Origin: a virus
DNA length: 64,000 bases
IMG/VR virus record: IMGVR_UViG_3300003873_000007
Location: 28,281-92,280 of that record
Strand: one strand, 5' to 3'
The notes beneath the pieces are model-generated. The model made no database searches. It was given only the letters and a program-made list of their open reading frames with translations, and was not told the origin of the DNA. The stretch's first letter is position 1. Each line of letters begins with the position of its first letter. Positions 8,815 through 62,789 of this stretch are shown one piece after another. The position numbers and the translations under genes were made by a program.

Positions 8815-11800
8815 ATGGCAATAGAATTATCATTCTCGTTATTTGAGAATGCAAATAAATTGAGAAGTGTTACAAACCCATCTTCTTTAAAAGCTGGAAA
8901 ATTTAAGTTTACAGAAGATGGATTATATTCCGAGTCTATATTTGGACCATTAAAAAATAATTCATGTTCATGTGGAGCCATTTTCTCAAAAGAAAATTTA
9001 GGAGTTCGATGTGAAACATGTGATGTATTATGTGATACAAATATGCTTCGTAGTTCCACTTTTGGAAGAATTGATTTGCCTAAAAATATATATATTATAT
9101 TACCAATTTTTCAAAACTTGTTAGGTAATATTTTCGGTCAGACTGCAATTAAAAGCATATTATCATATCAAAAATATGAAGATAATAAACAGAAGCCATA
9201 CTATTATTCGATTCAGCAACAGAAATTAGTTAAAATTAATAATTTTAAAGATAATGAAAAACGCATATTGAAAAAAGTTTATGATATAACAACACTACAT
9301 AAATTATACAGAAGTATGTTAAGAAATAAAGTTTTTAAAGAAAAGATTTTAGAACATTTATCAGATGATAGAATAGCTGATTATGTGTTTGTTAATTTTA
9401 TTCTAGTTATCCCGCCTGATTCTAGACCATTAATTCAATTAAATAAACAATATCAAGCGCATGCGATTACAGCTGCATATACTGAGATTTTAAAAAATAT
9501 CAAAAATAGTTTTATTGATAAATTGTTTCAAACAGATTCTGAAGGATTTGGACAAACAGTTTATAAGTATCAGTCAAGTATTAATAAATTATATGCTGAA
9601 ATAACTGATAAAAATTTTCAAAGAAAAAAAAGTATAGTTCGAGAATCATTAGCTGGAAAAACAGTAGAGACTTCTCAGCGAGCCACTATTGTACCGGAAC
9701 CTGTTCTTGCTCCAGGAAGCATAGCATTACATGAAGAAACTGTAAAAAAGATTTTTCAATTGGAACTTTTAAATTTTGTTAATTCTGAATATGAAAAACA
9801 AGAAAAAGATTCTAGTATTACGAACTTTGTACAAACTGTTCATAAACAAACAGCAAGTAATGGAGATATAAATATATCAGATGAGCTGTTTAAAAAATTC
9901 TTAGATGAAAAGGGTTCAGATCTAAGAATGCTATTAGAACGACCGCCTGTGCTATGGAGATATAATATTTCTGGGGCTTTACTAGGTCTAGTATATGCTG
10001 ATAATAAACACGTTGGAATTAAACAGGATCGTGTAACTGGTATGAATTCTTTAGTTGCACAAATGTATAATAGTGATTATGATGGAGATAATCTATCAGT
10101 TTATGCATTAACTAGTGAACAAGCAAAAAAAGATTTTTGGAACACCTATATGGAGAATTCAGTAGAGTTCGAACATCATAGAGGATTAATTGTAAATCCA
10201 GAACATGAAGCAATTTATGCTGCTTATATATTAAGTGTAAATGCTAACAAACGAACAATTAGAAAATATGATATTGAACAGTATGATTCATATGATGATT
10301 TTGAAGTTCAGATTGATACAATTAATCGTACCCCAGGCAGAATAGTTTCTATTGATGGAGACAAATTGCCGTATACAATCGCAGTTATAAATAAAGCATT
10401 GGGTCTAAATAAAAAGATATATGATGGAAGTTATATATTAAATAAAAAAAATTTACAAAAGCTATTAAAAGTTTTAAGAGAAAATGTTGATGATAAAGAA
10501 TTTTATACATATGTTCATAATTTTGATAAATTTTTATTAGAATGTTCAACTATAATTCAAGATTGTAATCCAACATTTGATTTAGATGACTTTGCAATTG
10601 GTAGTGATGAGATTGATAATTATAAAAAGACCTTGGTAAATGAACCTTATATAGCATTTCATCAAAACGATATTTTATTTCAAGAAATTGTTACACCTAA
10701 AGTAAAAGAAAGAGATACTAATATTTTAGCAAAAGTTTTTGATTCTGGAGCAAGAATCAAATCAGTTCAGTTATTAAAAGCTGTTTCAAATAATGGTATC
10801 CCTACGAATATTTACGGTAAAGCTTTTCAAGAAAATATTAAAAATTCATTGCTTGATGGCTTAACTAAACGTGAATTTTTTATGGGAGGAGATAGTGCTA
10901 GATTAGCATTAGCCCAACGACAGGAAGCTATTCCAAAAGGAGGAGAACTTCAGCGTAAATTTTATTATGCGACAGGATTTTTAAAATTAGACACCTTAGA
11001 CGATTGTGGATCTGATAGAGGTTTTGAGTTTAAGATACTTGATAAACAACATTTAGAATCATTGTATTCAAGGTATTATGTAACAGGTGAAGAAATTGAT
11101 ACAACAGATTTAAGTCTTATTGGCACATATGTTAATTTAAGAAGTCCAATTTATTGTGAATCTAAGAATTATAAAGTATGTAAAAAATGTTTTGGTCATA
11201 AACAACCGCAAAGTGTTGCATTAGGCGCAAGTATCGGCGCGTATATATCAGAAAGTATTATCCAAAGTGTTTTACGAACACATCACTTTTCAGGTGCTTT
11301 TATTACACAAATAAATGAAACAATGACTAAACTTATTAAAAAATTAAGATTTGTTTCACCAAATAAAATTTATTACAATGATGAAAATGACGTTTTAAAA
11401 TTGCAAGAATTACTTAATTCTTCAAAATATTATGATGATCCGAATCATGTTGAATTAATAAAAAAGGAAGATTACTATGAAATAATAATAAACGAGTTAC
11501 CATTTAATGATGATAGTGTTAAACAATTAAATAATATTGTTAGCATAATTGACAGGAATCGTGATAATGAAAACATGTTATCTCTCAATGAAATGTATAA
11601 TTTTTTATTAGATAACGTTGTGTTACCTAATGGAATTTTAAGTATTTTTATTGAATTAGTTATAGGAATATTATATTATGATGAAAATAAAGTAATGATA
11701 CGCTATAGTAAATTACCAATAGATCATCAAATTGCATTAAAAACTGTTATCGATAGATTAGATCCGAAATTATCAATCTTTCACAATTTCAGCAATAAAG

Positions 11801-43924: not shown

Positions 43925-45019
43925 ATGTATCATCTAATGTTCCTTCTCCTGTATCAGGAGGAACTATTATCACATGATATGTTATCAAAATATAATAAAT
44001 TAGTAAAATGCAATAAGTTACGACCAAATATTTTATTCTCAGAAGATCTTGTTGTACAACAACAGTTGTATTTATTATTTAATAATACGTCTTTTTGTAC
44101 ATCATACGATATAAGAGCGAGATGGAAAATTGTTAAAGATTCTTTAACCTATGATACAGTTAAATGTCCAGTCTGTGAAAATACAGCGGTATTTGATAGA
44201 TTTAAATTTTTAAAATACTGTTCAAAAGAATGTATGTATAAAGATAAACCTGTTCAAAAAAAATGGTCAAAACTAGGAATTCAAAACATTTCACAATTAC
44301 CTGAACATAAGAAAAAGGTTAAACAAAGTTGGAAAAATAAAACACAACAAGATAAAAAAGATATTTTAAAAAAACGTAAAAAAACAATTTCTGAAAAACA
44401 TTTAAGTTATAAAAAATATTGTATTCAAAACAACTTAAAAGGTCAACAAACATGCTTTACAAGATATGGTGTAAAAAGTTATTTAGAACTTATAAATAAT
44501 AATGGTTTATCAAATATTAATTATGAACATTTTAAAAATATTGATCTATATTTTGATAAAAAATTTATTATTGACAAATTCATAATTGATGATTTATTTG
44601 ATTACCATGCATTTATGAATTTTTTTAATTGTTGTCAACCGACAGCACACAATCATTTAAAGAAAATGAATATTGATTACACTAAAAAATCTGGAGGAAT
44701 AGATGTTTTAAAACCTGGGAAATTGTATTATTTAGAGATACAACATCACGAAAAATTATACTATAAGATTGGTATTACAAACTTTGATGTAAAGTCTCGA
44801 TTTAAAAGTAAAAACGATATGGATAAAATCAAAATCATTTTTGAAATAGATTTCGATTTAGCAATTAATGCATTAATTATTGAACAAAAAATAATTAAGA
44901 AAAATAAACAATATATCACGGATCAAAATATATTATCTTCAGGTAACACTGAAATTTTTAATATTGATATTAATGATATTAATTTACAAAAGGAAATAAA
45001 TGCAAACAGAACAAGATAA
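43925..45019 (+). CDS. Putative homing endonuclease with C-terminal GIY-YIG/T5orf172-like domain
   Basis: CPVC..YCSKEC finger; LYYL...YKIGIT....RF...IEQ...GNTEIF; the true start may be ~43974-43979. Confidence 0.6.
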   Translation: MYHLMFLLLYQEELLSHDMLSKYNKLVKCNKLRPNILFSEDLVVQQQLYLLFNNTSFCTSYDIRARWKIVKDSLTYDTVKCPVCENTAVFDRFKFLKYCSKECMYKDKPVQKKWSKLGIQNISQLPEHKKKVKQSWKNKTQQDKKDILKKRKKTISEKHLSYKKYCIQNNLKGQQTCFTRYGVKSYLELINNNGLSNINYEHFKNIDLYFDKKFIIDKFIIDDLFDYHAFMNFFNCCQPTAHNHLKKMNIDYTKKSGGIDVLKPGKLYYLEIQHHEKLYYKIGITNFDVKSRFKSKNDMDKIKIIFEIDFDLAINALIIEQKIIKKNKQYITDQNILSSGNTEIFNIDINDINLQKEINANRTR

Positions 45020-45746
45020 AACAAAAAGCTTTCTTAAAGGATTATCTGATGCTCATCGAGAAGACATCAAGAGAAATTTAGAGAATATAGAACCGTATCC
45101 TGGTCATGAAAATTATAGAATTTCTGAATTATCTCGAGCAGTAATGGCTGAACAAGTTTCAGAAAAAATGAAAGAGATATTTGATATTATGAAGTTAGAT
45201 TATAGAAATGATCCAAATCTTAAAGATACACCTATGCGAATATCTAGCATGTGGGTAAATGAATTAATGATAGGCAGATATCAAAATAAGCCTAGAATGG
45301 AATCTTTTCCACTACAGTTTGGAGGAGACGGAGGAATATTAATTGATGATACTCCATTAGAGCCAGGCATGATGATTACAAAAAAAGTCGATATTCGAAG
45401 TCTATGTTCTCATCATTTTATGCCATTTTTTAATAATGAAGATGGGTATGGATTAATTGCATATATGCCAACTGATAAACTTTTAGGCATTAGTAAACTT
45501 CAAAGATTAGTAAATTGGTACGGAGCTCGTCCTCAATTACAAGAACAATTAACATATCAAATCTATAAAGAAGTATGTGATACAATTGGTACAAATGATG
45601 TATTAGTTATTATGGAAAACATTGAACATACATGTGAAAGTCTTAGAGGTGTAGAATCCGTATGTGGTAGAACAAACACTGTTCAATATGGTGGAGCATT
45701 TAACGATGCGGCTTTACGTCGAGAAGTAATTCTCGGATCAAAATAA
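45000..45746 (+). CDS. folE: GTP cyclohydrolase I
   Basis: LKDTPMR, SLCSHHFMPF, GISKLQR, RPQLQEQLT, HTCESLRG. Confidence 0.95.
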   Translation: MQTEQDKTKSFLKGLSDAHREDIKRNLENIEPYPGHENYRISELSRAVMAEQVSEKMKEIFDIMKLDYRNDPNLKDTPMRISSMWVNELMIGRYQNKPRMESFPLQFGGDGGILIDDTPLEPGMMITKKVDIRSLCSHHFMPFFNNEDGYGLIAYMPTDKLLGISKLQRLVNWYGARPQLQEQLTYQIYKEVCDTIGTNDVLVIMENIEHTCESLRGVESVCGRTNTVQYGGAFNDAALRREVILGSK

Positions 45747-46351
45747 AAAATAAAATAATAGGAAACAGAATGGAAATGGAAAAAATGAAAGAACAAGTAC
45801 AAAAAATGATAGATTGGATCAATAAAGTTTTAAATATTGGTGTTTTTAATAATTTAGAAGAATCCACTACATCTGTGTCAGAGATAAAAGTTAGTAATAA
45901 AAGTACAGGTAAAGTAATGCCTGAGCCTTTAGTCGAAGAAGAAGCACAATATTGTTTAGATGAAGAAACTTTTGTTCCTAACATATCAGGAAAATATTCA
46001 GAACAAGAAGTTGATACAATTAAATTATTTTTAAAAAATAAAAATTTTAAAGATATATCATTAGAAGAATTTATAGGATTAGCATTTAAATTGAATCGTA
46101 AAGTATCTTCAGTTAAAACTAAAGCTAAAAAATTATATGATTCAAAGTAATATAATGAAAAAAATTATATGTTACGAAATAAAATATGGAGTGTTGACAA
46201 ATAATCGTTTTGAAATATCAGAAGAAGATTTTAAATTAGATATTAAAAAATGTGCTAAGACACATATTAAAAATGGTTATAAAATTTATTTAGATACGGC
46301 GACTTTTAATGATTTAAAAGTCTTTTAGCATCTAAATAAAAAAGGAGTTAT

Positions 46352-46804
46352 ATGGAAATTGATGAAAAACATGAATGGTTTCTTCCTGACCATTTTATAG
46401 AGAAAACTGATAATGATGAAGTATTACTATACGCCGATACAGATAGTTGTGTAGGTTCGACTAAAATTAGTATTAATAATAAACACATTTCAATTGAAGA
46501 TTTTTATGAGCAGTCAGATGGGCGAGTTGAAAAGAAATCAAAAGAAAATTTTGTAAAGTATTTAAACTCAAAATATATAACACCATCATTGAGTAAAAAA
46601 TTAGATATTGAAAATAACGATGTTATATATATTATGAAACATTTAGTAAAAAAAAGGATGTTTAAAATAATAGTTGATAGAAATGAAGTTATTATAACAG
46701 AAGATCATTCGATTATGGTTTTACGAAATTCCAAACTGATTAAAATTAAACCAGATAAGGTACAAAAGAATGATAGAATTATTACAATTTGTGAGCCGTC
46801 CTAA
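46352..46804 (+). CDS. polB: DNA polymerase B motif-C N-extein (31 aa, ...YADTD) fused to split-intein N-fragment
   Basis: YADTD followed by SCVGSTKI (intein block A) and ITEDHSI (block B TxxH); stops after 119 intein residues; AAGGAG RBS. Confidence 0.88.
   Translation: MEIDEKHEWFLPDHFIEKTDNDEVLLYADTDSCVGSTKISINNKHISIEDFYEQSDGRVEKKSKENFVKYLNSKYITPSLSKKLDIENNDVIYIMKHLVKKRMFKIIVDRNEVIITEDHSIMVLRNSKLIKIKPDKVQKNDRIITICEPS
46445..46801 (+). mobile_element. Split intein, N-fragment (Ser1)
   Basis: Blocks A and B present, no blocks F/G. Confidence 0.85.
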
Positions 46805-47891
46805 ATGCATTGAATGTAATTTATCTGAAATATCTGATAAAGTATGGACAAAATATAGTTTAAATCGAAAAAATATTGGCTCAGATGGATGTTGGTTAAA
46901 ACCAAAACTTATAAATGGTCATCCATATTATAGAAAAAGATGCTTGAATTGTTTTAAAAAATTATATAAAAGAGATGCTAAAAAATTAAATACATTAAGT
47001 TATGATTTTATATATCTATTTGATATATCAGAAGATGTTTTAAAAAAAGCAAATGCGAATCGAGCAGTAACTCTTAAAAATATGGTTAAGAAATATGGTG
47101 AAATTGAAGGAACCTTAAAGTTTGAAACGTATTGTAAAAAACAAGCACATAGCAATAGTCTAGAATTTTTTTTAAATAAAGGATATACAAAACAAGATTT
47201 TATAGATTATAATAAAAATCGAGCGGTAACCCTTGAAAATATGATCAAAAGATATGGTGAAATTGAAGGAACTTTAAAATTTGAAAATTATTGTGAGAGA
47301 CAACGATACACAAAATCATTAGATTATTATGAAGATAAGTTTGGAAAAACCTCAGCAAAACTTGAATTTGATAAAACTAATAAATTAAAAGCAATAACTC
47401 TTAAAAACATGATTATGAAATATGGGAAAATTGAAGGAACCTTAAAGTTCAACAATTTTGCTAAAAAATCACAATCTGGATATTCTGAGATGGCTTCTAA
47501 TGTTTTCATATTTTTGTTTGAAAAAATAATTCACGACTTTCCAAATTTAAAGGATAGTATTCAATTTCAACCATTAACACAAGAATATTTTTTATCAAAT
47601 ACTGATGGAATATATTTTTACGATTTTACAATTAAGAATCTTAAAATTATCATAGAATTTAATGGGGATGTGTATCATGCAAATCCATTAATTTATAAAA
47701 AATCAGATAAACCAATACATTGGTTTTATCCAGATTTAACTGCGAATGAAATCTGGAATAAAGACAAACTAAAAAAAGATCGAGCTATAAATAACGGCTT
47801 TACATTTTTTACAATTTGGGAGTCAGATTTAAAGCAAACTCAATTTTTAGAAAATTTTTATTTAACATTAAAAAGGAAATTGGTATGTTAG
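46770..47891 (+). CDS. Free-standing Vsr-like homing endonuclease between the split-intein halves
   Basis: Three repeats of (R/K)A(V/I)TL(K/E)NM.K.YG.IEGTLKF; FYDF...IIIEFNGDVYHANP...IWESD; lies in a different frame from both intein halves. Confidence 0.8.
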   Translation: MIELLQFVSRPKCIECNLSEISDKVWTKYSLNRKNIGSDGCWLKPKLINGHPYYRKRCLNCFKKLYKRDAKKLNTLSYDFIYLFDISEDVLKKANANRAVTLKNMVKKYGEIEGTLKFETYCKKQAHSNSLEFFLNKGYTKQDFIDYNKNRAVTLENMIKRYGEIEGTLKFENYCERQRYTKSLDYYEDKFGKTSAKLEFDKTNKLKAITLKNMIMKYGKIEGTLKFNNFAKKSQSGYSEMASNVFIFLFEKIIHDFPNLKDSIQFQPLTQEYFLSNTDGIYFYDFTIKNLKIIIEFNGDVYHANPLIYKKSDKPIHWFYPDLTANEIWNKDKLKKDRAINNGFTFFTIWESDLKQTQFLENFYLTLKRKLVC

Positions 47892-48007
47892 TTAAATATC
47901 ATGATGATTACACAGTTGAAGATTTAGGTATTTGTGAGGAATGGGTTTATGATATCGAGGTTAAGAATAATCATAATTTCTTTGCAAATTCAATTCTTAT
48001 TCATAAT
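47885..48007 (+). mobile_element. Split intein, C-fragment
   Basis: Blocks F/G ending His-Asn, with +1 Ser. Confidence 0.88.
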
Positions 48008-48889
48008 AGTGCTTATTTACTTTATGATTTACCATTTAATAAATATGAAGATATTCACCAACTCGTCAATTATGTTCAATCTATTGCTCGAGAATTAGGG
48101 GAAATATATAATAATGCATTAGAATATTATTTATGTAATTTTGCTGGATTAAATCCTGAATATAACACAATGGATTTTAAATCTGAGGTTATTGCATATA
48201 AAGGTTTCTTTAACACTAAAAAGTTTTACTCACTTGCTAAATGTTGGGACGAAGGAGTATTCTTTGAAGAGAAGCCTAAATTAAAAACAACAGGTGGACA
48301 AATAAAAAAATCTGATGTTACACAGATCACCAAAAAGTTATTAACTGAAATTTATCATATTTTAGTTACAGATATAAATCAAAACGATATTATAAAAATG
48401 TATAGAATGATTTTTATTGGTTTAAAAAATAAATACAAATTACAAATATCAGAAGATATTGAAAATATGGAATTTACAAGTTTTAGTGTTCCAAAAAAAT
48501 GGGGAAGTACAGAAAAAAGTATTCCTCCGTTTGTAACAGGAGCTAAATTATACAATGCTATAATAGGGGATACTTTTCGTCCATCCGATGCATTTATTGT
48601 TGTAAAAGTTATTATTGATGTTGAGAAATTATTAGATTTTTATATACAAAATAATGTTAATGATGATAAATTTACATTACAGCGGACAGAAGTACAAGAA
48701 TTGAAAAATAAAATAAATGTGATTAGTATACCTCCAATTTTAAGTGATGAAGAAAAAACAAAGTTGTTGGATGTAATGAAAAAATTAAATATTAGATTAA
48801 ATTTAACAGAAATAATTGAATATAATATCGATTTAAAAATCGATCCGTTTGAAAAATTATTTGATGAAGAGACAAGGCTAAGTGCATGA
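47885..48889 (+). CDS. polB: Split-intein C-fragment (41 aa) fused to DNA polymerase B C-terminal palm/thumb
   Basis: AAGGA RBS before ATG 47885; VYDIEV.NNHNFFANSILIHN/SAYL; then MDFKSE, TKKFY and KTTGGQIKKSD PolB-type motifs. Confidence 0.88.
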   Translation: MLVKYHDDYTVEDLGICEEWVYDIEVKNNHNFFANSILIHNSAYLLYDLPFNKYEDIHQLVNYVQSIARELGEIYNNALEYYLCNFAGLNPEYNTMDFKSEVIAYKGFFNTKKFYSLAKCWDEGVFFEEKPKLKTTGGQIKKSDVTQITKKLLTEIYHILVTDINQNDIIKMYRMIFIGLKNKYKLQISEDIENMEFTSFSVPKKWGSTEKSIPPFVTGAKLYNAIIGDTFRPSDAFIVVKVIIDVEKLLDFYIQNNVNDDKFTLQRTEVQELKNKINVISIPPILSDEEKTKLLDVMKKLNIRLNLTEIIEYNIDLKIDPFEKLFDEETRLSA

Positions 48890-49950
48890 TACAACATAAT
48901 AGTTTAAATCCGATCAACGTTGATAACATTCAAGAAATCGTTAAACATTTAAAAGATAATAATTACAAATTTTATCAATTTTATAATATTGAAATCGAAG
49001 CGGATGAATATAGTTTTATTCAATATATGTTGAAATATAAAGATTCACCAAGAAGCAAGGTCTTAAATAAAACATATTATGATATTGAAACTTTTGTTAA
49101 CGAAGATGGTGATTTTACTGATCCGGAAAAGGTTGATAGACCAGTAAATAGTATTGCTCTTTATAATAATATCTCAAATACAGCTTATGTTATAGCATAT
49201 GTTACAGAATGCAATATTACAGATCCTGATGAAATTTCATCAGGGATTCATAAACTGTTTACAGAAAAAGTTGCAGAAAATGAAACTTATAACATCCCTG
49301 ACATTACTTTAGATATTCGAATTTTATCTGATGAAAAAGAATTGATAAAAGAATTTTGGTCTTTAATGCAAGAACAAAATACTTTAGCTTTAATTGGATT
49401 TAATAGTAATACATTTGATGATGTTTTTATGTTTAATAGGACTGCTAAATTATTTGGAAAAGATGCTCGAGATAATATGGTATCAGAATTCGGTATTGTT
49501 GAACAATATGGTCAGCAATTCGAAATTCCTGATTATTTATTAGTAGATTTATTAAAATTGTATAAACCTGTTGGGTCAGGAGGGGGAGGATTAGGAAAGT
49601 CACTTCCTGACTTTAAATTAAATACTGTTGCTTATGAAGAATTAGGTATAACAAAATTAGATTTACCTGGCGGGTTTAGATGGAATTATTTAAATGATAT
49701 AGTAGGATATTTAACATATAATATATTTGATACATTATTAACATTTAAAATGGATGAAAAATTAATGTTTATGGAATTAATGTTTGACTTATCAAAATAT
49801 AATAATGCTAGTATGGGAGCGACAATTAATGGTCGATCAATATTATATTTATATAGGAATGATCTAATGTATTGCTCACAAGATAAAATTATTAGATCAA
49901 AAAAATTTTCGAGAGAAGTGCTTTTTGAACCAAAAATAAAAGATATTTAA
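48886..49950 (+). CDS. polB: DNA polymerase B 3'-5' exonuclease domain as a separate gene
   Basis: ExoI YYDIET, ExoII GFNSNTFDD, KLNTVAYEELG, ExoIII YNIFD. Confidence 0.88.
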   Translation: MIQHNSLNPINVDNIQEIVKHLKDNNYKFYQFYNIEIEADEYSFIQYMLKYKDSPRSKVLNKTYYDIETFVNEDGDFTDPEKVDRPVNSIALYNNISNTAYVIAYVTECNITDPDEISSGIHKLFTEKVAENETYNIPDITLDIRILSDEKELIKEFWSLMQEQNTLALIGFNSNTFDDVFMFNRTAKLFGKDARDNMVSEFGIVEQYGQQFEIPDYLLVDLLKLYKPVGSGGGGLGKSLPDFKLNTVAYEELGITKLDLPGGFRWNYLNDIVGYLTYNIFDTLLTFKMDEKLMFMELMFDLSKYNNASMGATINGRSILYLYRNDLMYCSQDKIIRSKKFSREVLFEPKIKDI

Positions 49951-50401
49951 AGGAGAAAATGTTAATGACAAACAGTGAAGTGCTACAGAAAATAAATGAT
50001 TTAAAATTAGAAATAGATGAACAAACACTACTATGTAAAAATATAGTAAAGGTAGAAAATGTTACATCAAAAGATATACAAAACTTATTAGATTCAACTT
50101 TGGAAAAAATTGATACTTTGAAAAAGTATCAACAAATAATTTTAAATAGAAATTATTTAGAATTCATAGAATATAATTCTGAAAATATAAATATCCAAAC
50201 TTTAATTAAAAGAAAAGAAAAATTATTATTAAAGAAGAAATTTGAAACAATTTTAATTAATTCATATAATGACACAGAAGGACTTGTGAAAATATCAATA
50301 GATGCTTTTCAACACGTTCAAGAATATAAAAAAGAATTATCAAAAATTCATAGTATATTAAATATTTTTAATAATACACAATTCAAATTAGAGGAATATA
50401 A

Positions 50402-51709
50402 ATGAAAAAAATAACAGAACTTAGACTCGAACCACTTGATAGAAAACCACAATTAGTACAACATTTTGTATCATTAGAAGGGGAGGGTGGCACAATCGGA
50501 AGAAGTGCATTGTATATCAGAACAGGTGAATGCTCATTACGTTGTAATTTTTGTTTCGGCTCACCTAAAGGTAAAAGAGAACCTAAAATTACAACATTAA
50601 ATCAAAAGCGTAAAAAATTAACAAAAATTGAAGTCGGTGATAAATTATTAACATATAATGATGACCAAGAACTGGTTGAAACAGAAGTGTATAATGTAGT
50701 TGATAGAGAAGTTGATAAATATTTAAAAATTAAAATTGACGATAAATTTTATTATGTTACACATGAACATCCATTTTTTACAACAAACGGTTTAAAAAGA
50801 GCAGATGAATTAAAAATTGGTGATGATATTATACACGGAAATGAGGAAGAATATAATATTCTTCGTATGAAAATAAATAATTCAATACATAATGAATCTA
50901 ATCAAAAACGATTAAATAAAACTGTTCAAAAAATTGAAGAAATTTCTGATAAATTAAAAGTTTATAATATATCATGTGCACCATATAATACATATCTGAT
51001 TGATGATATGTGGGTACATAATTGTGACACCGCTTATAGTGTAGAAGGGAAAGATGAACATAATATTGTTGATATGACAAGTGAAGAATATGTTAATTTA
51101 TTAAGAAAAGAATATTCTAGATCGCAACGCCAAAACATTTCAAATTTATCAATTACTGGCGGCGAACCTCTTTTAAATTTAAATTATATGAGAAAACTTA
51201 TACAATCAACATTAAAAGCATTCCCAAAAATTACTCAAATTATTTTTGAAACAAATGGTACAATGTTAAGTAAAGAACAAAACGCTTTTAAATTGATAGA
51301 ACAACTCGGATGTTTTCATCCACATCTAAAATTTATGTTGAGTATTTCTCCTAAACTTTCAGGAAAAATTAGCTACAGTAATATTAAAAATGATGAAGAA
51401 ATTTTAGATATATACAAAAATGTTCTTAATAATTACAAAGGTATATTAGATGCACATTTTGATATTCAATTAAAATTTGTACATAGTAATGTTCTAAGTA
51501 AATGGAATGAGACTTTAATTGATTATGCTTTATCTATGATTGACCCGTTACATAAAAATCAAATATTAATTATGCCGTTTACACCAGTTGACCCTTTAGG
51601 TAGAGATAAAGATTCTTGGAATTCATCAAAAGATGATGCTGCTAGATATGCAATGGATAATTATTTTAGATATAGTCCTAGAGTTCATGTTGATAGACGA
51701 TTAGATTAA
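50402..51709 (+). CDS. queE: 7-carboxy-7-deazaguanine synthase (radical SAM) containing a mini-intein
   Basis: SLEGEG...G, CSLRCNF[intein]CDT, ITGGEP, FETNGT, ISPKL, SPRVH. Confidence 0.9.
   Translation: MKKITELRLEPLDRKPQLVQHFVSLEGEGGTIGRSALYIRTGECSLRCNFCFGSPKGKREPKITTLNQKRKKLTKIEVGDKLLTYNDDQELVETEVYNVVDREVDKYLKIKIDDKFYYVTHEHPFFTTNGLKRADELKIGDDIIHGNEEEYNILRMKINNSIHNESNQKRLNKTVQKIEEISDKLKVYNISCAPYNTYLIDDMWVHNCDTAYSVEGKDEHNIVDMTSEEYVNLLRKEYSRSQRQNISNLSITGGEPLLNLNYMRKLIQSTLKAFPKITQIIFETNGTMLSKEQNAFKLIEQLGCFHPHLKFMLSISPKLSGKISYSNIKNDEEILDIYKNVLNNYKGILDAHFDIQLKFVHSNVLSKWNETLIDYALSMIDPLHKNQILIMPFTPVDPLGRDKDSWNSSKDDAARYAMDNYFRYSPRVHVDRRLD
50552..51022 (+). mobile_element. 157-aa mini-intein inside the CxxxCxxC motif of QueE
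   Basis: Starts Cys (CFG), IEVGD, VTHEHPF, LKIGD, VYNI, ends WVHN followed by Cys; no endonuclease domain. Confidence 0.9.
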
Positions 51710-53463
51710 GGATTTATTAAATGATAAATCCGTATGATAACAGTATACAATCGGACTATTACATAAAACCATCAATTGATTATTACGATAATGAATTAAA
51801 ACGTCGCGACACATTTAGAATTGATACTTATAATATTTTGATATATGAAGTTTCAAAAGACTCAATGCATTATAATCACAATTTACATTTGCTAACTCTT
51901 ACTAATATGGATATACGAATGTATACTCTTTTACAGTTACCAGATACTCGATTATTTTTAGACGTACTTGAAAATAGTGATATTAAATCATCAACCAGAT
52001 TTAAAATTACAAATGTTCACTTAATTAATGAGGAAGATGGTTTATACAATATTCAATTATCAATGATTAGTGATTATGTTTTTGATATGTTAAATTCAAA
52101 TAAATATGCTAGTATATCCATATCAGATGTAAATGTTCAACTGACATCATTTGAACTGATTTCTAAAATTATTCAACAAATGGTATCCGATCATGGAACA
52201 AAAGTTGATGCAAACTATACAAATGCTGGAGAATTAAAGAATTTATTATCATATGTTAGGATCCCTGATAATTTAAATGATTTTGAGATTTTTAATTATT
52301 TATTTGATACTTATCCTCCTTATCTTTTAGCTCCTTATCTTATCTTCGATGACTTTAATATTAGACAAAATAGTAAAAGTGACTTTAGTATAATCCTTTT
52401 AAATATTTGTGATATTAATGGGAGCTATCCTTTAAAAAATATTAAAAGCATACCTGGTACAGTAACTGGTTATGTTGAACATTTAGACAGTAAACCGTTG
52501 CTAAATTATAATGAAGTTTTTGAAGAATTACAAGCAACTTTAATAATAAAAAATGAGAATGAGAATAAAGTATTTGAATTGAAACCTGCTCAAACATCAA
52601 GACATTCAAATAAGATTAAACACATAAACAGTTCGCTAACAATCGAATCATTTAAACAAAAAATGATTATGCGAAAAATTTTAGCGGAATATGAAGCAAG
52701 TATAGAAACATATATTTATGATGATATAAATTTATCTGATATTATATTTGGTGAAGTATACAATATAAATAATAGTTTAATTTATAATTATTTACCAGTT
52801 AGTTTCTTTTATAAATTTATAAAAAAACAAGATAATAGTTTTAAATTGGAAACAAAAATAGAATTTCTTAGACTTCCAGGGAGTCTAATAACAAAAGGAT
52901 GGTGATGGCAAAACAAAACGATGCAATCAGCAGTCTAATTAATCCTTTATATTTTAAAATGATTAAAAATGCTGTTGTAAAACATGGTAGAATTAATGTT
53001 CAAGCTCTTTCTGAAAAGTTTAATATTCTACCAGGAAATACATATTTTCGAAACTTTATAAAAGACAATGATCAAAATTATCTAGGAACCAATGGATTAA
53101 AAAGTATTTTAAATGTATGTGGATATACTATTCGATTAGTTCCTGTTAAAAAAAGTGATATTGATACGATGACATATATTGAAAAGTTGACAGCTGAATC
53201 GTTTACTGATATTAGTGAAAAAATTAGTAAACAAGCAGAGATGTTAAAACGACCTCCAAAAAAAGAAAAGAAAAATAGTCCAAGAATAATAGCAAACGCT
53301 AAATTAATTAATGATAGTATAATGGGAATTTCATCTGATGATATTAACGATATATTTGATGATGATAACGATGATTTAATTATAGGAACATTTGATGATT
53401 TGGATGATTTACCGGACATTGAAATCGATCCTATAAAATTAGCGGAACATCTAAAAGAAAACG

Positions 53464-53506
53464 ATCTATAAAGATATTTTATATTAATATAGAAATAATA
53501 TATAAC
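53464..53506 (+). promoter_or_regulatory. Putative phage promoter (copy 3)
   Basis: ATCTATAAAGAT-N14-TAGAAATAATATATAAC upstream of 53519. Confidence 0.55.
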
Positions 53507-53518
53507 TAAAGGATATAA

Positions 53519-55063
53519 ATGAAATATATTAGCGTAACTTCTCCAGGAACTGATATGGCAAAACCTATATTTAATTATTTTAATAAATATTTAATTTCGT
53601 TAGGTGAACCAATCACGAATAATTCATGGGATGCATTAAAATTGATGAAACATTTAGATAAAATTCTTGAAGAGAAACCTGAAGATTATAAATTATATAT
53701 TGATTCGGGTGGGTTTCAAATTATAGTAGGATATGTTGAATCTGATAGAATTTATAGTTACATAAATGTTTATCATACATTGTTAAAAAAATATAAAGAT
53801 AAAATTGAAACAATTTTTGGGTTAGATGTTTATTCTGATAGTTTTATGAAAACTTTTAAAACGCTTCCTCCAATTTATAGAGAATCTGAGCATTCACTTG
53901 GTAAGATTATTGCAAAACCGTCACGAAATGTTCCAATTTTTCCGGATACATATATTAAAGAAGATATGTTAGATTTTTATGATGCAAATAAATATAGCAT
54001 GTTAAAATCAATAGAACTAATAAAAGAATTTCCAGAGATTGCAAATAAACAAATTTTTATTTTACAGTCATCAAATATCATAACATTTAACATATGGAAA
54101 GATCTTTTTGATGAATTAGAAGTTTATAAATATTATAAAAGATGGTCAATTGGTGGATTGGTTGGATTAAAAAAATCAACAAATGCTAGATTTAGCCACG
54201 CTGTTCCAGCAACTCTTTGGTTACTTACCCAACAGAGATTACATAATTTTGAAATTGATCAAATCCACTGGCTAGGTCAAAGTTCAAGACTCAGTTTTTT
54301 AAGCATGGCGTTATTTGAAAAAATATATGGAATTAACATGACTAGTGATAGTTCTCAGTTAGTTCGATTTGCTCCTCTCGAAGCAAAATTACCATACATA
54401 ATTAAACAAGATGATGATTTTGAATTAATTTCAAGTAAATCTGAAGTAGTTAAAATGTTTAATAACCATTCAATTAAGGATGCAAAATGTTTTATAAAAG
54501 TAACCAGTGCTAGCAATATTGTTGAGATGAAGAGTCCACAACAATTAAAAATTATTGAAAATAATCTAAAAGATGGAAAGGTTTTTTATTTTGATCAAAT
54601 AATATATGATCAAATATTAAATTCAAAAGAAGAGATGTATTTTCAATTAACAACTGAACAGTATTTTAAATTAACTGGTAAATTAGATAATCAAACATTT
54701 ATCGAATTTCAATCTCAAAATTTATCAGCTGACTTAGAATTTGGAAATTTTATTATTAACAAGATTATGAAACTAGTAAAATATAAAATTAATGATGAAG
54801 AAGTTTCATTTGAAGATTTTAAAAGTTCCTCTGATCAAAAAAAATTTACAATCTCAACGGGGATTGATGCAATTGATACAGTTGAAGATATAAAATGTTT
54901 ACATCCGATTATGAATAGAGGCAGAACATCGTTAGAGTTATTTAACAATATTAAATATTTTAAACAATTTGCTCCTATCATTAAAGAAAAAGATATACAA
55001 AAAGCTAATCATATCATGGATACAATTGTTTTAAATTATAATAAATATTTTAAAAGTAAATAA
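53519..55063 (+). CDS. dpdA: TGT-fold transglycosylase, DpdA-like (7-deazaguanine insertion)
   Basis: YIDSGGFQ, FILQ, SIGGLVG, IHWLG, TSDSS motifs, in the context of que genes. Confidence 0.7.
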   Translation: MKYISVTSPGTDMAKPIFNYFNKYLISLGEPITNNSWDALKLMKHLDKILEEKPEDYKLYIDSGGFQIIVGYVESDRIYSYINVYHTLLKKYKDKIETIFGLDVYSDSFMKTFKTLPPIYRESEHSLGKIIAKPSRNVPIFPDTYIKEDMLDFYDANKYSMLKSIELIKEFPEIANKQIFILQSSNIITFNIWKDLFDELEVYKYYKRWSIGGLVGLKKSTNARFSHAVPATLWLLTQQRLHNFEIDQIHWLGQSSRLSFLSMALFEKIYGINMTSDSSQLVRFAPLEAKLPYIIKQDDDFELISSKSEVVKMFNNHSIKDAKCFIKVTSASNIVEMKSPQQLKIIENNLKDGKVFYFDQIIYDQILNSKEEMYFQLTTEQYFKLTGKLDNQTFIEFQSQNLSADLEFGNFIINKIMKLVKYKINDEEVSFEDFKSSSDQKKFTISTGIDAIDTVEDIKCLHPIMNRGRTSLELFNNIKYFKQFAPIIKEKDIQKANHIMDTIVLNYNKYFKSK

Positions 55064-55066
55064 TCT

Positions 55067-55151
55067 ACGTCAATGATATGTGACGTTAAACTATCCGGAT
55101 ATAAGGTGTGATATAAATCATTAACAATATTTAAACGTTGCAACGTTTAAA
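55067..55151 (+). promoter_or_regulatory. ssb leader: possible H-type pseudoknot plus a 22-bp palindrome
   Basis: ACGTCA/TGACGT stem whose loop GATA can pair with TATC at 55092-55095; TTTAAACGTTGCAACGTTTAAA at 55130-55151 just before the RBS. Confidence 0.45.
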
Positions 55152-55170
55152 ATTTTAAAGGAAAAATATA

Positions 55171-56076
55171 ATGGCAAAAAATTTAACAATCAACAACGCA
55201 ATCATCCAGTACGCTTTTTTAGAAAGAGTAAACCCAATTTCAAACAAGTATAGCTTTGAGTGTTTAATTCCACAAGATCATCCACAAATTCAAGAAGTTA
55301 TGGCAGCGTGTTCTGCAGAATGGGCAACTGTTGGCGCAGGTCAACCAGAAACATCTGCTCAATCAATTGGATACAATTGGACTCTACCAAATGATGTAAA
55401 ACATATTCATGCTGATGTTGCTCCTATGCTTAATCCAAATTTACAATATTTACGTTTTAGAGGTGTACAAGAAGCTAATGTTGCACCAGAAAAAAATACT
55501 AAAATTTATGCAAATATGTTAGCTGAAGATGGAGTAACTTTAGTATCTGCTGAGGTTCCTAATCGTTCAATTATTGGTGATGGTACAATTGCAAATGTAA
55601 ATGTAAATGCTTTTGGTTATCAAGCATCTGGTCAAAAAGGAGTGAAATTCTACGGGCAATGGCTTCAAATTGTAGATTTAAAAGAATCTAAGTATGCTGG
55701 AGCGGGCGTTCCACCAGCACCTGCTGCTAATGGTTACGTAGCTCCAGCTGAACTATTCGCAGCTCCTGTTAATGCTGCTCCTGTGGTACCTGTTAATGCC
55801 GCTCCAGTGACTACACCTGTAGCACCTGTTAATGCTGCTCCTACTGCACCTGTGACTACACCTGTAGTACCGGTTAATGCTGCTCCTACCGCTCCTGTTA
55901 ATACTGCACCTGTAGCACCTGTAGCACCTGTAGCACCGGTTAATGCTGCTCCTACTGCACCTGTAGCACCTGTTAATGCTGCTCCTACTGCTCCTACTGC
56001 TCCTACTGCACCTGTAGCACCTGTAGCACCTGTAGCACCTGTAGCACCTGTAGCACCTGTAGCACCTACTGCATAA
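55171..56076 (+). CDS. ssb: Single-stranded DNA-binding protein (T7 gp2.5/DUF2815-like) with long Ala-Pro-Val-Thr tail
   Basis: [27 protein letters not shown]....KGVKFY...LQIVDL; ~110-aa low-complexity tail. Confidence 0.65.
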
Positions 56077-59083: not shown

Positions 59084-60340
59084 ATGGGAATTGAATATAA
59101 ACAAAATGACATAAAAAGATTAGCTGCCCATTTGAAAACATTAGGGGCTTATGTTCAGGCACCTAAGCCTCAATTAATTGGATTAAGTGACTATCAAGTA
59201 GTTGGGAGCCAAGATGCTAAATCACTGTATCCAACTATTATGGTATTATTAAATATTGGATATGATACGTTAAGAGGTCGATTATATGATTATGACATAG
59301 TTGGTAATTTATATAATATGCTATTAAAAGTTTTTGAAATAAAAAAAGAAAGAGATGATACTGTAGAAATTGCAACTAATAACTTTAAAGGAGCTTTAAG
59401 AAATTTAGCAAAAGATTATACCAATCGTGAGAAATTAAAAGAATCTAAAAAAGAATTCATTGAATTTACAACTGATTTTTATGGCGAATGTTTTAGAAAA
59501 ATTGTAAATTATAACGGTTCATTTGAAGAAATTTTAACTCCACATAATGATGAAACTTATTATTTATTAAAAAGTGCATTGTATCCTTTATTCGAAGCAT
59601 TCACTTGGATTAGTCCTAGAAATAAAGGTTATAGTACAATCATTATTGATCATGTTTTTTATAACTCAACTTTTGATGAAAAATATAAAGATAAAAAATT
59701 TATATTTTTTGAAAATATAAATTCAAGTAAGACGCAAGTAAAAATATATAATTTAGAAGAATTTCATACAAATGTTAGTTCAAAATATATTCTTAATCCA
59801 TACGGAACAGTTTTTGACAAACATGATGATAATAAGAGTTTTGAAGTAGATTTAATTCTTGGAGGAATGTCTGATAGAGGATATGTAAAAAATCAAATGT
59901 TAATTATCGAAGCGATTGTTCAAAACTGGGGAAAATTATCACAGATTCAACAAGCAGCTTTCATATTAGATCATGAAAAATTAAACCCTGTAATAGCAGA
60001 AGAAGTTATCTCTTTGGTTGGTGCCTCAGATGAGAAAACGAAAAAGTGGCAACTAAATAATTTATTAAGTATTACATTTGAAACGGTTGTAACCGAAGAA
60101 AAATTGAATGCTAGATTAGAATTAGCAGCTTCTCAAAGAAACTCAAAGAGTAATGGTATTAAAGTAACATTAAACTCTGGATACGGAATATACGGAATGG
60201 CAACTTGGAATTATGGAAATAACCTTATAGCAAATTCGATAACAACTGGAGGGAAAATATATGGTATTAAATTGTTCCAACAAGTTGCAAGTAATAAACT
60301 TAAAGTTGAACGAGCTAAAATTCAAAGTATTGCCAGTTAA
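59084..60340 (+). CDS. polB: DNA polymerase B palm motif A plus fingers motif B as a separate gene
   Basis: GAYVQAP, DAKSLYPTIM..LNI, KVTLNSGYG, ANSITTGG; ends before motif C. Confidence 0.9.
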   Translation: MGIEYKQNDIKRLAAHLKTLGAYVQAPKPQLIGLSDYQVVGSQDAKSLYPTIMVLLNIGYDTLRGRLYDYDIVGNLYNMLLKVFEIKKERDDTVEIATNNFKGALRNLAKDYTNREKLKESKKEFIEFTTDFYGECFRKIVNYNGSFEEILTPHNDETYYLLKSALYPLFEAFTWISPRNKGYSTIIIDHVFYNSTFDEKYKDKKFIFFENINSSKTQVKIYNLEEFHTNVSSKYILNPYGTVFDKHDDNKSFEVDLILGGMSDRGYVKNQMLIIEAIVQNWGKLSQIQQAAFILDHEKLNPVIAEEVISLVGASDEKTKKWQLNNLLSITFETVVTEEKLNARLELAASQRNSKSNGIKVTLNSGYGIYGMATWNYGNNLIANSITTGGKIYGIKLFQQVASNKLKVERAKIQSIAS

Positions 60341-61046
60341 TAAATATATTAAAAAAGGGAAAATTTCAAAAAAAATAAGATATATGATAGATCGCGATAA
60401 TGAACAATATCAAATAATAAAAAAATATTCAAAAAGTAATGGTATAATTTTTAAAAATTATAAATTTGCAGCAGAAGTCTATTGTTATATAAACAATATT
60501 AAATTTCCGAGATGCAAAGTTTGTAAAAATATAGTAAGATTTGTATCGACTATTTCAGGATTTAAAAAGTATTGTAGTTCAAAATGTAGAGCTAAAGACA
60601 AACATTGGCGCGTTCAACATTCTAAAATGTGGAAACTTAAAAATATCGATAAAAACAAAACAAGACAATCATACAGAAGTAATAATAAAGAATTGTTTAA
60701 AAGATATTCTAGAAAATATTTTAAAACAGAAAAAGGGTTGTTGCAAAAAAGAGTTCAAAATGCAAAAAGACGAGCTATGCGAAAAAAAGTAAAAGAAAAT
60801 TTTTCGGCTAATGATCGATTAAATGTGTTTAAAAGATTTAATTTTAAATGTTTTAATTGTTTATCTACTAAACAATTAGAGATTGATCATCATTTGGCGT
60901 TAAGTACAGGAACTCCTCTTACAAATGGCAACGCTGTATTATTGTGCAAAAAATGTAATGTTTCTAAATCGAATATTCATCCATCAAATTTTTATGATAA
61001 TAATAAATTAAAACTATTATTTATCAAATATAATATAGGTTTATAA
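60261..61046 (+). CDS. HNH homing endonuclease-like protein
   Basis: CKVC..YCSSKC finger; CFNC...LEIDH......G.....N...LCKKCN.SK; overlaps the end of the polB fragment. Confidence 0.8.
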   Translation: MVLNCSNKLQVINLKLNELKFKVLPVNKYIKKGKISKKIRYMIDRDNEQYQIIKKYSKSNGIIFKNYKFAAEVYCYINNIKFPRCKVCKNIVRFVSTISGFKKYCSSKCRAKDKHWRVQHSKMWKLKNIDKNKTRQSYRSNNKELFKRYSRKYFKTEKGLLQKRVQNAKRRAMRKKVKENFSANDRLNVFKRFNFKCFNCLSTKQLEIDHHLALSTGTPLTNGNAVLLCKKCNVSKSNIHPSNFYDNNKLKLLFIKYNIGL

Positions 61047-61532: not shown

Positions 61533-62789
61533 TTGAAGAAAATGTTAATTTTTGTAGACACAAAGAATAATAGAAACAAGTATTATCAATTAGAATTAAT
61601 TGGAGATACTGTTCATGTTGAATATGGTCGAGTTGGAAGCTCACCACAAAAAACATCTTATTCAGGTGGTGAAAAGATGTTTAATAAAAAAATGAAAGAG
61701 AAAATTAAAAAGGGGTACACAGAAGCAAAAGTTGATTTAGAATTATTAGAAGAAACATCTGATAGAAAAGGTAATATTTTAGAGATTGCTATGGAACAGA
61801 TTAAAACAGATGATGTAAGTAAACTTTTTATCGACACCATAGTTAAGCAAAATATTCATAATATCACAAGTAATACAAAAATAAAATATGATATAAAAAC
61901 AGGTTATTTTAAAACAGCTTTAGGTATTATAACAAAAGAAGGTGTCGAAGAAGCAATTAATTTATTAGAGTTAATTGATACTTTTCAAGATAGTATGGGA
62001 AAATTATCAGATATAAAATATGATGAATTTGTAAGATTAAATGAACAATATTTTAGCATAATTCCTACAAAAATTAAAGATCTTCGTAATTACAAGAATC
62101 TTTTAATTACTAATAAAAAAGTAGAAGAACAATTAGATATATGTACATCTTTATTAAAATCTTTAGATATTATCAATTCAGAGAAATCAATAAAGAATGA
62201 TAATTCTTCAAATAAAGTAGATAAAATATTTAGTGCAAGTGTGCTACATTTAAAAGATAAAGTTGAATATAAACGATTAGAAAAGTTGTTTAATAATTCA
62301 AAGAATAATAGGCATGGTCATAATTCTTATAAAATAAGTAATATTTTTAAGGTAAGTCTTGGTAAAGAGGAAGAAAATTACAGATATGATTTAAATAATC
62401 AAATGGAATTATTTCATGGAACGAGAGTAGCTAATTTATTGAGTATTTTAAAAAGTGGTTTGTTAATGCCAAAATATAGTCCAGGTCAAAGTACTGGTTA
62501 TATGTTTGGACAAGGTTTATATTTTGCAAATCAAAGTACAAAAAGTTTAAATTATTGTGATGGTATGTACTGGAACAATTCACAAAAAAAGGATAAAATC
62601 TATATGTTTATTGCTGATGTAGCATTAGGTAATTATCAAGTACCTAGTAGAAGCAGAAGTAAAAAACCAGATAAAGGGTATGACTCATATTGGGCACAGC
62701 CAGGTAAGAGTGGAATACAGAATGATGAAATGATTGTGTTCAACAATGATCAAATTAAATTAAAATATATATTGGAGATTACAAAATGA
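61533..62789 (+). CDS. PARP-like ADP-ribosyltransferase (WGR, helical and catalytic domains; TTG start)
   Basis: NRNKYYQL...YGRVG (WGR), YFSIIP (regulatory domain), LFHGT, GYMFGQGLYFA, NDEMIVF (H-Y-E triad). Confidence 0.9.
   Translation: MKKMLIFVDTKNNRNKYYQLELIGDTVHVEYGRVGSSPQKTSYSGGEKMFNKKMKEKIKKGYTEAKVDLELLEETSDRKGNILEIAMEQIKTDDVSKLFIDTIVKQNIHNITSNTKIKYDIKTGYFKTALGIITKEGVEEAINLLELIDTFQDSMGKLSDIKYDEFVRLNEQYFSIIPTKIKDLRNYKNLLITNKKVEEQLDICTSLLKSLDIINSEKSIKNDNSSNKVDKIFSASVLHLKDKVEYKRLEKLFNNSKNNRHGHNSYKISNIFKVSLGKEEENYRYDLNNQMELFHGTRVANLLSILKSGLLMPKYSPGQSTGYMFGQGLYFANQSTKSLNYCDGMYWNNSQKKDKIYMFIADVALGNYQVPSRSRSKKPDKGYDSYWAQPGKSGIQNDEMIVFNNDQIKLKYILEITK

Follow-up and report, generated by a model that had tools for sequence, protein, structure and literature searches.

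A probable split Ser1 intein, fractured by a Vsr-like endonuclease gene, at motif C of a DNA polymerase subunit of an uncultured phage

The 64,000-nucleotide (nt) stretch of viral DNA analysed here, called the window throughout, comprises bases 28281-92280 of the 92-kb IMG/VR virus contig IMGVR_UViG_3300003873_000007 and encodes a family-B DNA polymerase (PolB), of which the subunit carrying motif C and the thumb is specified by two separate open reading frames (ORFs). With a probability that we put at about 85%, the interruption is a naturally split class-1 Ser1/Ser+1 (cysteine-independent) intein of the 'PolB1' family of phages Aes123 and CP21, situated at YADTD|S of the subunit and fractured by a free-standing gene for a Vsr-like endonuclease at the canonical endonuclease-insertion site. 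So assigned, the element is a further member of a known family of fractured genes, in which the PolB1 split intein of Aes123, from the T4-like phages of Aeromonas salmonicida, is one of the closest known counterparts (Bhagawati et al., 2019, PMC6825276; Humberg et al., 2025, PMC11923092). Trans-splicing has been demonstrated for the Ser1/Ser+1 split inteins Aes123 PolB1 (120/39 amino acids, aa) and CP21 PolB1 (115/39 aa) (PMC11923092, PMC12707363), and a related split PolB intein is associated with an HNH endonuclease in the jumbo phage MIJ3 (PMC6892783). The first-pass annotation of the window, made from the letters alone, had named both the fractured arrangement and the Ser1 split inteins as already described, and rightly so: Ser1/Ser+1 split PolB inteins with Vsr-like endonucleases are on record in the literature, have been seen to splice in trans and occur widely in metagenomes. 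Since the 92-kb contig is only about 33% complete according to CheckV, it points to a jumbo phage, which is uncultured; the window has a guanine-cytosine content of about 25%, with genes almost all on the plus strand.

Three consecutive ORFs make up the locus (Table 1), the first ending in the N-terminal intein fragment (IntN), the second encoding the endonuclease and the third beginning with the C-terminal intein fragment (IntC). An in-frame TAA at 46337-46339, 5 codons upstream of the N-extein ATG, means that the N-extein cannot be longer than 31 aa. Separate translation of the halves is indicated by the stop codon after IntN, by the ATG and ribosome-binding site that IntC has of its own and by the 1.1-kb out-of-frame gene in between, which shares 35 nt with IntN and 7 nt with IntC, while the exonuclease gene begins within the stop codon of the thumb gene. 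No terminator-like sites were found in 45700-50000, where promoter-like sites occur only at shuffle background. The first-pass description of the locus holds in its particulars, that is, an IntN of 119 aa with Ser1 and TEDH at residues 85-88, an IntC of 41 aa ending in IHN before Ser, both in the same frame and each preceded by a ribosome-binding site, a 373-aa ORF that lies in another frame and overlaps the two, and charges of +7 for IntN and -6 for IntC, which a recount (K+R-D-E) returned unchanged.

Each half on its own resembles a known intein. Scores against PF14890 (26 bits for IntN, 22 bits for IntC) lie under the Pfam cut-off, as is to be expected because each query is half a domain. 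Both halves are homologous to a solved and active split intein, the fused Aes123 PolB1 intein of PDB entry 9HTH (PMC11923092), to which IntN aligns over chain residues 2-119 and IntC over residues 133-170, the alignments taking in the flanking extein residues DTD and S.YL. Over the whole intein, identity amounts to 42% with Aes123 PolB1, 51% with F379 (CP21 group), 49% with locus L004, 32% with the Tenacibaculum phage PTm1, 54% with locus L010 and 55% with the protein P0011, and the break falls at the same alignment column in the window and in all split relatives compared. The motifs T85-E-D-H88 and K65-H66 are kept in all aligned relatives; IntC contains blocks F and G, the terminal His-Asn and Ser+1 (VYDIEV…NHNFFANSILIHN|S).

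The same site is found empty in close relatives. A homologue search with the IntC-thumb ORF, which covered 5.8 billion proteins, returned intein-less proteins of 317-325 aa that read LLYADTDSAYLLYDLPF at this point. No gap is needed to align the product spliced in silico (31+293 = 324 aa) with the 324-aa P0003 (79.6% identical) and P0005 (77.5%), two stand-alone proteins in which the junction YADTDSAYL is identical, and the C-extein is 69-80% identical to intein-less homologues. A gapless empty-site alignment with an identical junction confirms the splice site and the 31-aa N-extein, and the predicted splicing product YADTD-SAYL, a canonical motif C, is thereby matched in sequence by existing 324-aa proteins.

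Other relatives carry the element in other states. In P0011 (476 aa, 68% identity) it is a contiguous 159-aa mini-intein, with the N and C parts of which IntN and IntC of the window align. At L010 (positions 9410-11014), a locus of the same phage clade, intact separate IntN and IntC ORFs lie 93 nt apart and the spacer keeps a remnant of endonuclease residues 1-36, so that the split form persists after loss of the endonuclease gene, as in the stage that the fractured-gene model calls 'endonuclease loss'. Of the 82 clade homologues found for the subunit, 64 are intein-less, eight have a contiguous intein and six, the window's own included, are IntC-thumb proteins. A further 29 IntC-thumb proteins from outside the clade in the same search show that split PolB1-type inteins are common in metagenomes. 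The 92-kb contig holds a single copy of the subunit, and neither a second intact copy nor a paralogue of the endonuclease was found in it. Judged against intein-less, cis-intein and endonuclease-less relatives and the solved Aes123 intein, the reading as a split intein in a fractured gene, first proposed from the window alone, is well supported at the sequence level.

The middle ORF is apparently an intact homing endonuclease of the EDxHD/Vsr-like kind (PMC2677866, PMC3239194). Its product has an N-terminal region with CxxC…CxxC, then three helical repeats, each about 45 aa long (RAVTL.NM..KYGEIEGTLKF..Y) and visible in the sequence and in the model, while aa 237-373 (nt 47478-47888) at the C-terminus form a nuclease domain of the Vsr-like (EDxHD) kind. 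A Pfam search with the 373-aa protein, repeats included, gave no match, nor did a single-sequence phmmer search against PDB, and profile searches matched only Vsr and a Vsr-superfamily protein (E of about 0.02). The protein belongs to phrog_22677; homologues occupy the same position in Aes123, CP21/F379, PTm1, L004 and Lak megaphages, those of Aes123 and PTm1 being annotated as VSR endonuclease, and exhaustive searching with HMMER turned up 4081 cluster representatives at E<=1e-3. An AlphaFold (AF2) model built from 60 homologues has a mean predicted local distance difference test (pLDDT) score of 93. Foldseek E-values were weak (0.06-0.4), and the fold was assigned because of the subsequent superposition with VIA-align, in which residues 237-373 match E. 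coli Vsr (1cw0; Z 10.4, root-mean-square deviation, rmsd, 3.0 Å, 117 residues aligned) and the catalytic domain of I-Bth0305I (3r3p; Z 9.7, rmsd 2.9 Å, 97/97 aligned). D285, E296, G299, H303, D332 and W350 are invariant in the 60 homologues and D300 across a 5-phage alignment; in the HMM alignment D285, H303 and D332 fall on Vsr catalytic positions. The Vsr-like nature first ascribed to this ORF thus agrees with the modelled fold and the conserved catalytic residues. In P0024 (495 aa) and P0084 a shortened endonuclease, with the N-terminal CxxC region and the Vsr domain and without the repeats, reads in frame into IntC and the thumb, which suggests a decaying or fused endonuclease.

The short N-extein is explained by the architecture of the polymerase. 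Three genes tile the T4-type gp43 profile phrog_262 (856 positions), the exonuclease gene over 61-349, the palm/fingers gene over 382-549 and the C-extein over 583-767, and they stand with C first, N next and M last, N and M being separated by about 9 kb that contain other genes. As the same order is kept at 55-73% protein identity in L008, L009 and L010, the IMG/VR loci from which the genomic context of relatives was read, it is not a misassembly. A tblastn search with the F379 polymerase did not recover the exonuclease and palm/fingers pieces, which were found by motif search and PHROG profiles, and the literature, as searched, yielded no relevant account of a phage PolB in three pieces or in permuted order. 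The 64 intein-less clade members have 23-40 residues up to and including DTD, except for one subclade with 74-84 and one apparently truncated sequence with 9. Judged by these sequences, the 324-aa subunit of motif C and thumb is encoded separately, and the 31-aa N-extein is its natural N-terminus. The small size of the N-extein, remarked on in the first-pass annotation, stands at 31 aa; its oddness does not, because the subunit is conserved in 64 intein-less relatives, of which this is the normal start and not a truncation. In the product of the palm/fingers gene (59084-60340), 375 residues span 168 phrog_262 positions, which implies that about 200 aa are inserted in the fingers; an HNH endonuclease gene (60261-61046; PF01844, E=7.5e-6) overlaps the 3' end of the palm/fingers gene by 80 nt, where the polymerase piece ends, and has no match in L009.

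A course of events compatible with these observations would begin with three proteins made from one strand, the 150-aa N-extein-IntN, the endonuclease and the 334-aa IntC-thumb. Basic IntN would pair with acidic IntC into one folded HINT domain, in which Ser1 would attack the D31-S1 peptide bond, aided by His88 of block B and His66 of the NX motif; the acyl group would then pass to Ser+1, Asn41 of IntC would cyclise, and an O-to-N shift would leave the 324-aa subunit with an intact YADTDSAYL. This subunit would join the separately encoded exonuclease and palm/fingers subunits, while the endonuclease may cut endonuclease-free or intein-free alleles of co-infecting relatives and so spread the element. 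Trans-splicing, cleavage specificity and subunit assembly at this locus are what we infer, in distinction to the anatomy, the homologies, the empty-site and cis alleles and the endonuclease fold. A wider proposal, doubtful as a whole, is that the PolB of this clade is a three-subunit enzyme in permuted order (C, N, M) and that in this phage the motif-C aspartates sit on a 31-residue extein that would need trans-splicing to the thumb; splicing would then be obligatory, and possibly rate-limiting or condition-sensitive, for the active site. With so short an N-extein, the Ser1 split intein would also be 'peptide-ligating' by nature, and it might be orthogonal to Aes123/CLm.

Several points weigh against an active, cysteine-independent split intein. 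The window intein has three non-catalytic cysteines (Cys2 of IntN, one near the C-terminus of IntN and one in IntC), and we infer its cysteine independence; its penultimate motif reads IHN, where relatives have VHN. Splicing of several natural relatives in vitro is inefficient, reaching about 30% for Aes123, and CP21 is aggregation-prone (PMC11923092, PMC12707363). A second polymerase may also be encoded elsewhere in the genome, the contig being only about a third of it.

A rival reading is an inactive relic, the halves of which no longer splice, so that the 150-aa and 334-aa proteins would act as non-covalently paired polymerase pieces, as do the intein-free gp43A and gp43B of Aeromonas phages 25 and 44RR. 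PolB of the clade already operates with subunits that have genes of their own, the parts of split gp43 purify together and show activity although they have no intein (PMC2988022, citing Petrov et al., 2010), and poor splicing in vitro is possible in natural relatives (PMC11923092), but all catalytic intein residues are conserved, and within motif C the break parts the catalytic aspartates from the next strand, a place at which an unspliced HINT domain of 160 aa would be hard to tolerate. Moreover, both L010 halves are intact in spite of the loss of the endonuclease gene, which argues for selection on splicing, and we consider a relic unlikely.

A different nucleophile is hardly probable. As the window reads DTD|S-C-V-G-S-T and Cys1 inteins are the commoner kind, the intein could also be taken to start at CVGST, with Cys2 acting as Cys1 and splicing leaving an extra serine (YADTDS-SAYL). 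However, the serine aligns with Ser1 of Aes123, F379, L004, PTm1 and L010, and position 2, where the window has Cys, is Val or Leu in all five; Ser1 was assigned as the nucleophile because in these relatives only the serine can act. With Ser as residue 1 the conserved Thr/Ser lands at position 6, as in the relatives, all 64 intein-less relatives (64/64) have one Ser/Thr-type residue after DTD and none extra, and the K-H pair fits the NX motif [K/R]-H that is specific to Ser1 inteins (PMC10189870). Alignment and catalytic motifs alike thus favour the predicted Ser1/Ser+1 assignment.

That two indels in one contiguous intein-endonuclease ORF produced the split as a sequencing or assembly artefact, as the AT-rich genome with its homopolymer runs and the occurrence of the sequence in one sample only might suggest, is very unlikely because two independent Logan contigs (10.7 and 9.8 kb, about 20x) cover 45198-55851 and 45200-54978 with 0 gaps and at most 1 mismatch, and because the out-of-frame three-ORF layout recurs in the independently sequenced cultured phages Aes123, CP21/F379 group and PTm1, the ends of IntN and IntC at the break lie at the same alignment columns as in Aes123, and EDxHD endonucleases are encoded by genes that stand free and have a start of their own (PMC2677866, PMC3239194). 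The comparison was made at contig level with a different assembly of the same, probable source sample, no RNA data set being listed as containing the sequence, and short Logan 'joints' with sides of 21-27 nt were ignored as low-complexity matches.

With an active Ser1 split intein as the preferred reading, the locus can be set beside its characterised counterparts. It shares with Aes123 the DTD|S insertion point of motif C, Ser1 and Ser+1, the break point, similar fragment lengths (119/41 aa in the window) and an out-of-frame 'VSR endonuclease' gene between the halves, with overlaps of 16 and 17 nt in Aes123. Charges of IntN and IntC are +8/-11 in Aes123 and +8/-12 in L004, compared with +7/-6 in the window, and the polarity of a basic IntN and an acidic IntC is a trait of every PolB1 family member examined. 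In Aes123, too, the polymerase is further split, GenBank listing gp43A, gp43B1 (N-intein), a putative VSR endonuclease and gp43B2 (C-intein). On the other hand, the inteins are only 42% identical, Aes123 has no cysteine as compared with three non-catalytic ones, its N-extein has about 172 aa instead of 31, and the clade of the window encodes the other polymerase pieces downstream, in permuted order.

The closest cultured-phage relatives are the Campylobacter Firehammervirus phages CP21 and F379 (PMC12707363), with endonuclease identity of 38-39%, the same architecture and, as in the window, 7-deazaguanine (queuosine-type) genes that adjoin the polymerase. Unlike the window, F379 has as N-extein a contiguous 620-aa N-terminal polymerase, and its endonuclease ORF is annotated in two pieces; the CP21 fragments measure 115/39 aa. 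In comparison with distant F379, the intein (51%) is better conserved than the thumb extein (32%), whereas in comparison with close L010 the intein (54%) is behind the extein (62%), as one would expect if the element moves horizontally. In L004 and PTm1, too, an out-of-frame endonuclease ORF stands between the other two ORFs, which it overlaps slightly or not at all.

The locus agrees with the fractured genes of Dassa et al. (2009, PMC2677866) in the consecutive arrangement on one strand of the N-part of the host gene with IntN, a free-standing endonuclease and IntC with the C-part, and in the overlap of the 3' end of the endonuclease with the IntC gene (7 nt, compared with 6-69 bp reported). 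It differs in that a non-coding spacer of 27-51 nt and a hairpin precede the endonuclease there, whereas in the window the start lies 35 nt inside IntN and no significant hairpin was found upstream of it (fold of 46730-46810, z=0.52 against shuffles). Aes123 overlaps as well (16 nt); spacer and hairpin are a variable and not a defining feature of the arrangement. The Vsr-like nuclease at the C-terminus is of the I-Bth0305I type (Taylor et al., 2011, PMC3239194), and the helical repeats ahead of it may be DNA-binding repeats of the NUMOD kind that such enzymes have at the N-terminus. As in gp43A/gp43B of T4-related Aeromonas phages (Petrov, Ratnayaka and Karam, 2010, reviewed in PMC2988022), a family-B replicative polymerase would consist of separately encoded, non-covalently assembling polypeptides, but the window has three host-protein genes instead of two, in the non-collinear order C, N, M and with about 9 kb between N and M.

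The locus leaves current understanding unchanged and would not surprise a specialist, but its phage clade displays four states, the empty site, the contiguous intein, the split intein with endonuclease and the split intein without it, and in this the gene-fracturing model of Dassa et al. has a clean series from nature. The locus also illustrates that 31 extein residues can be enough to carry an active-site motif of a polymerase. Cysteine-independent split inteins are sought as protein-ligation tools and few efficient ones are known; as its identity to the characterised inteins of Aes123 and CP21 is 42-51%, the window intein is a reasonable candidate for an orthogonal pair.

Table 1. Features of the interrupted polymerase locus and of the other polymerase genes in the window
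Feature	Position	Strand	Basis or remark
Shine-Dalgarno-like AAGGAG ahead of the N-extein/IntN gene	46342..46347	+	sequence
N-extein/IntN ORF	46352-46804	+	150 aa, frame 2
N-extein, 31 aa, ending in the motif C aspartates (LLYADTD)	46352..46444	+	P0003 and P0005 start alike
Predicted IntN, 119 aa and stop; Ser1, NX motif K65-H66, block B T85-E-D-H88, charge +7	46445..46804	+	PF14890 E=7e-6; PDB 9HTH E=5e-21
Putative free-standing homing endonuclease gene, 373 aa, frame 0	46770..47891	+	phrog_22677 E=1e-52
Shine-Dalgarno-like AAGGA ahead of the IntC gene	47873..47877	+	sequence
IntC-thumb ORF	47885-48889	+	334 aa, frame 2
Predicted IntC, 41 aa; block F VYDIEV, block G NSILIHN, charge -6	47885..48007	+	PF14890 E=1e-4; PDB 9HTH E=2e-8
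C-extein, 293 aa and stop; Ser+1 (SAYLLYDLPF), rest of PolB palm and thumb	48008..48889	+	phrog_262 positions 583-767
PolB N-terminal/exonuclease subunit gene, Exo I-III motifs	48886..49950	+	PF03104 E=1e-8; phrog_262 positions 61-349
PolB palm/fingers subunit gene, motif A DAKSLYPT, motif B KVTLNSGYG	59084..60340	+	phrog_262 positions 382-549

A contiguous mini-intein of about 156 aa (Cys1…VHN, Cys+1) lies at 50552-51019 within the ORF 50402-51709, which encodes a QueE-like radical-SAM enzyme. It sits in the iron-sulfur motif CxxxCxxC of this enzyme, so placed that the third cysteine of the cluster would serve as the +1 nucleophile; the QueE-like gene is uninterrupted in L008 and L010. Upstream of the polymerase locus, a 364-aa ORF (43925-45019) has a weak T5orf172/MUG113-type C-terminal domain and a match to phrog_681 'endonuclease', overlaps the folE start and has no counterpart in L008, L009 and L010, for which reasons it is probably another mobile endonuclease. 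Farther downstream, a phage protein encoded at 61533-62789 combines a WGR domain with a PARP catalytic domain (PF00644, E=6e-34).

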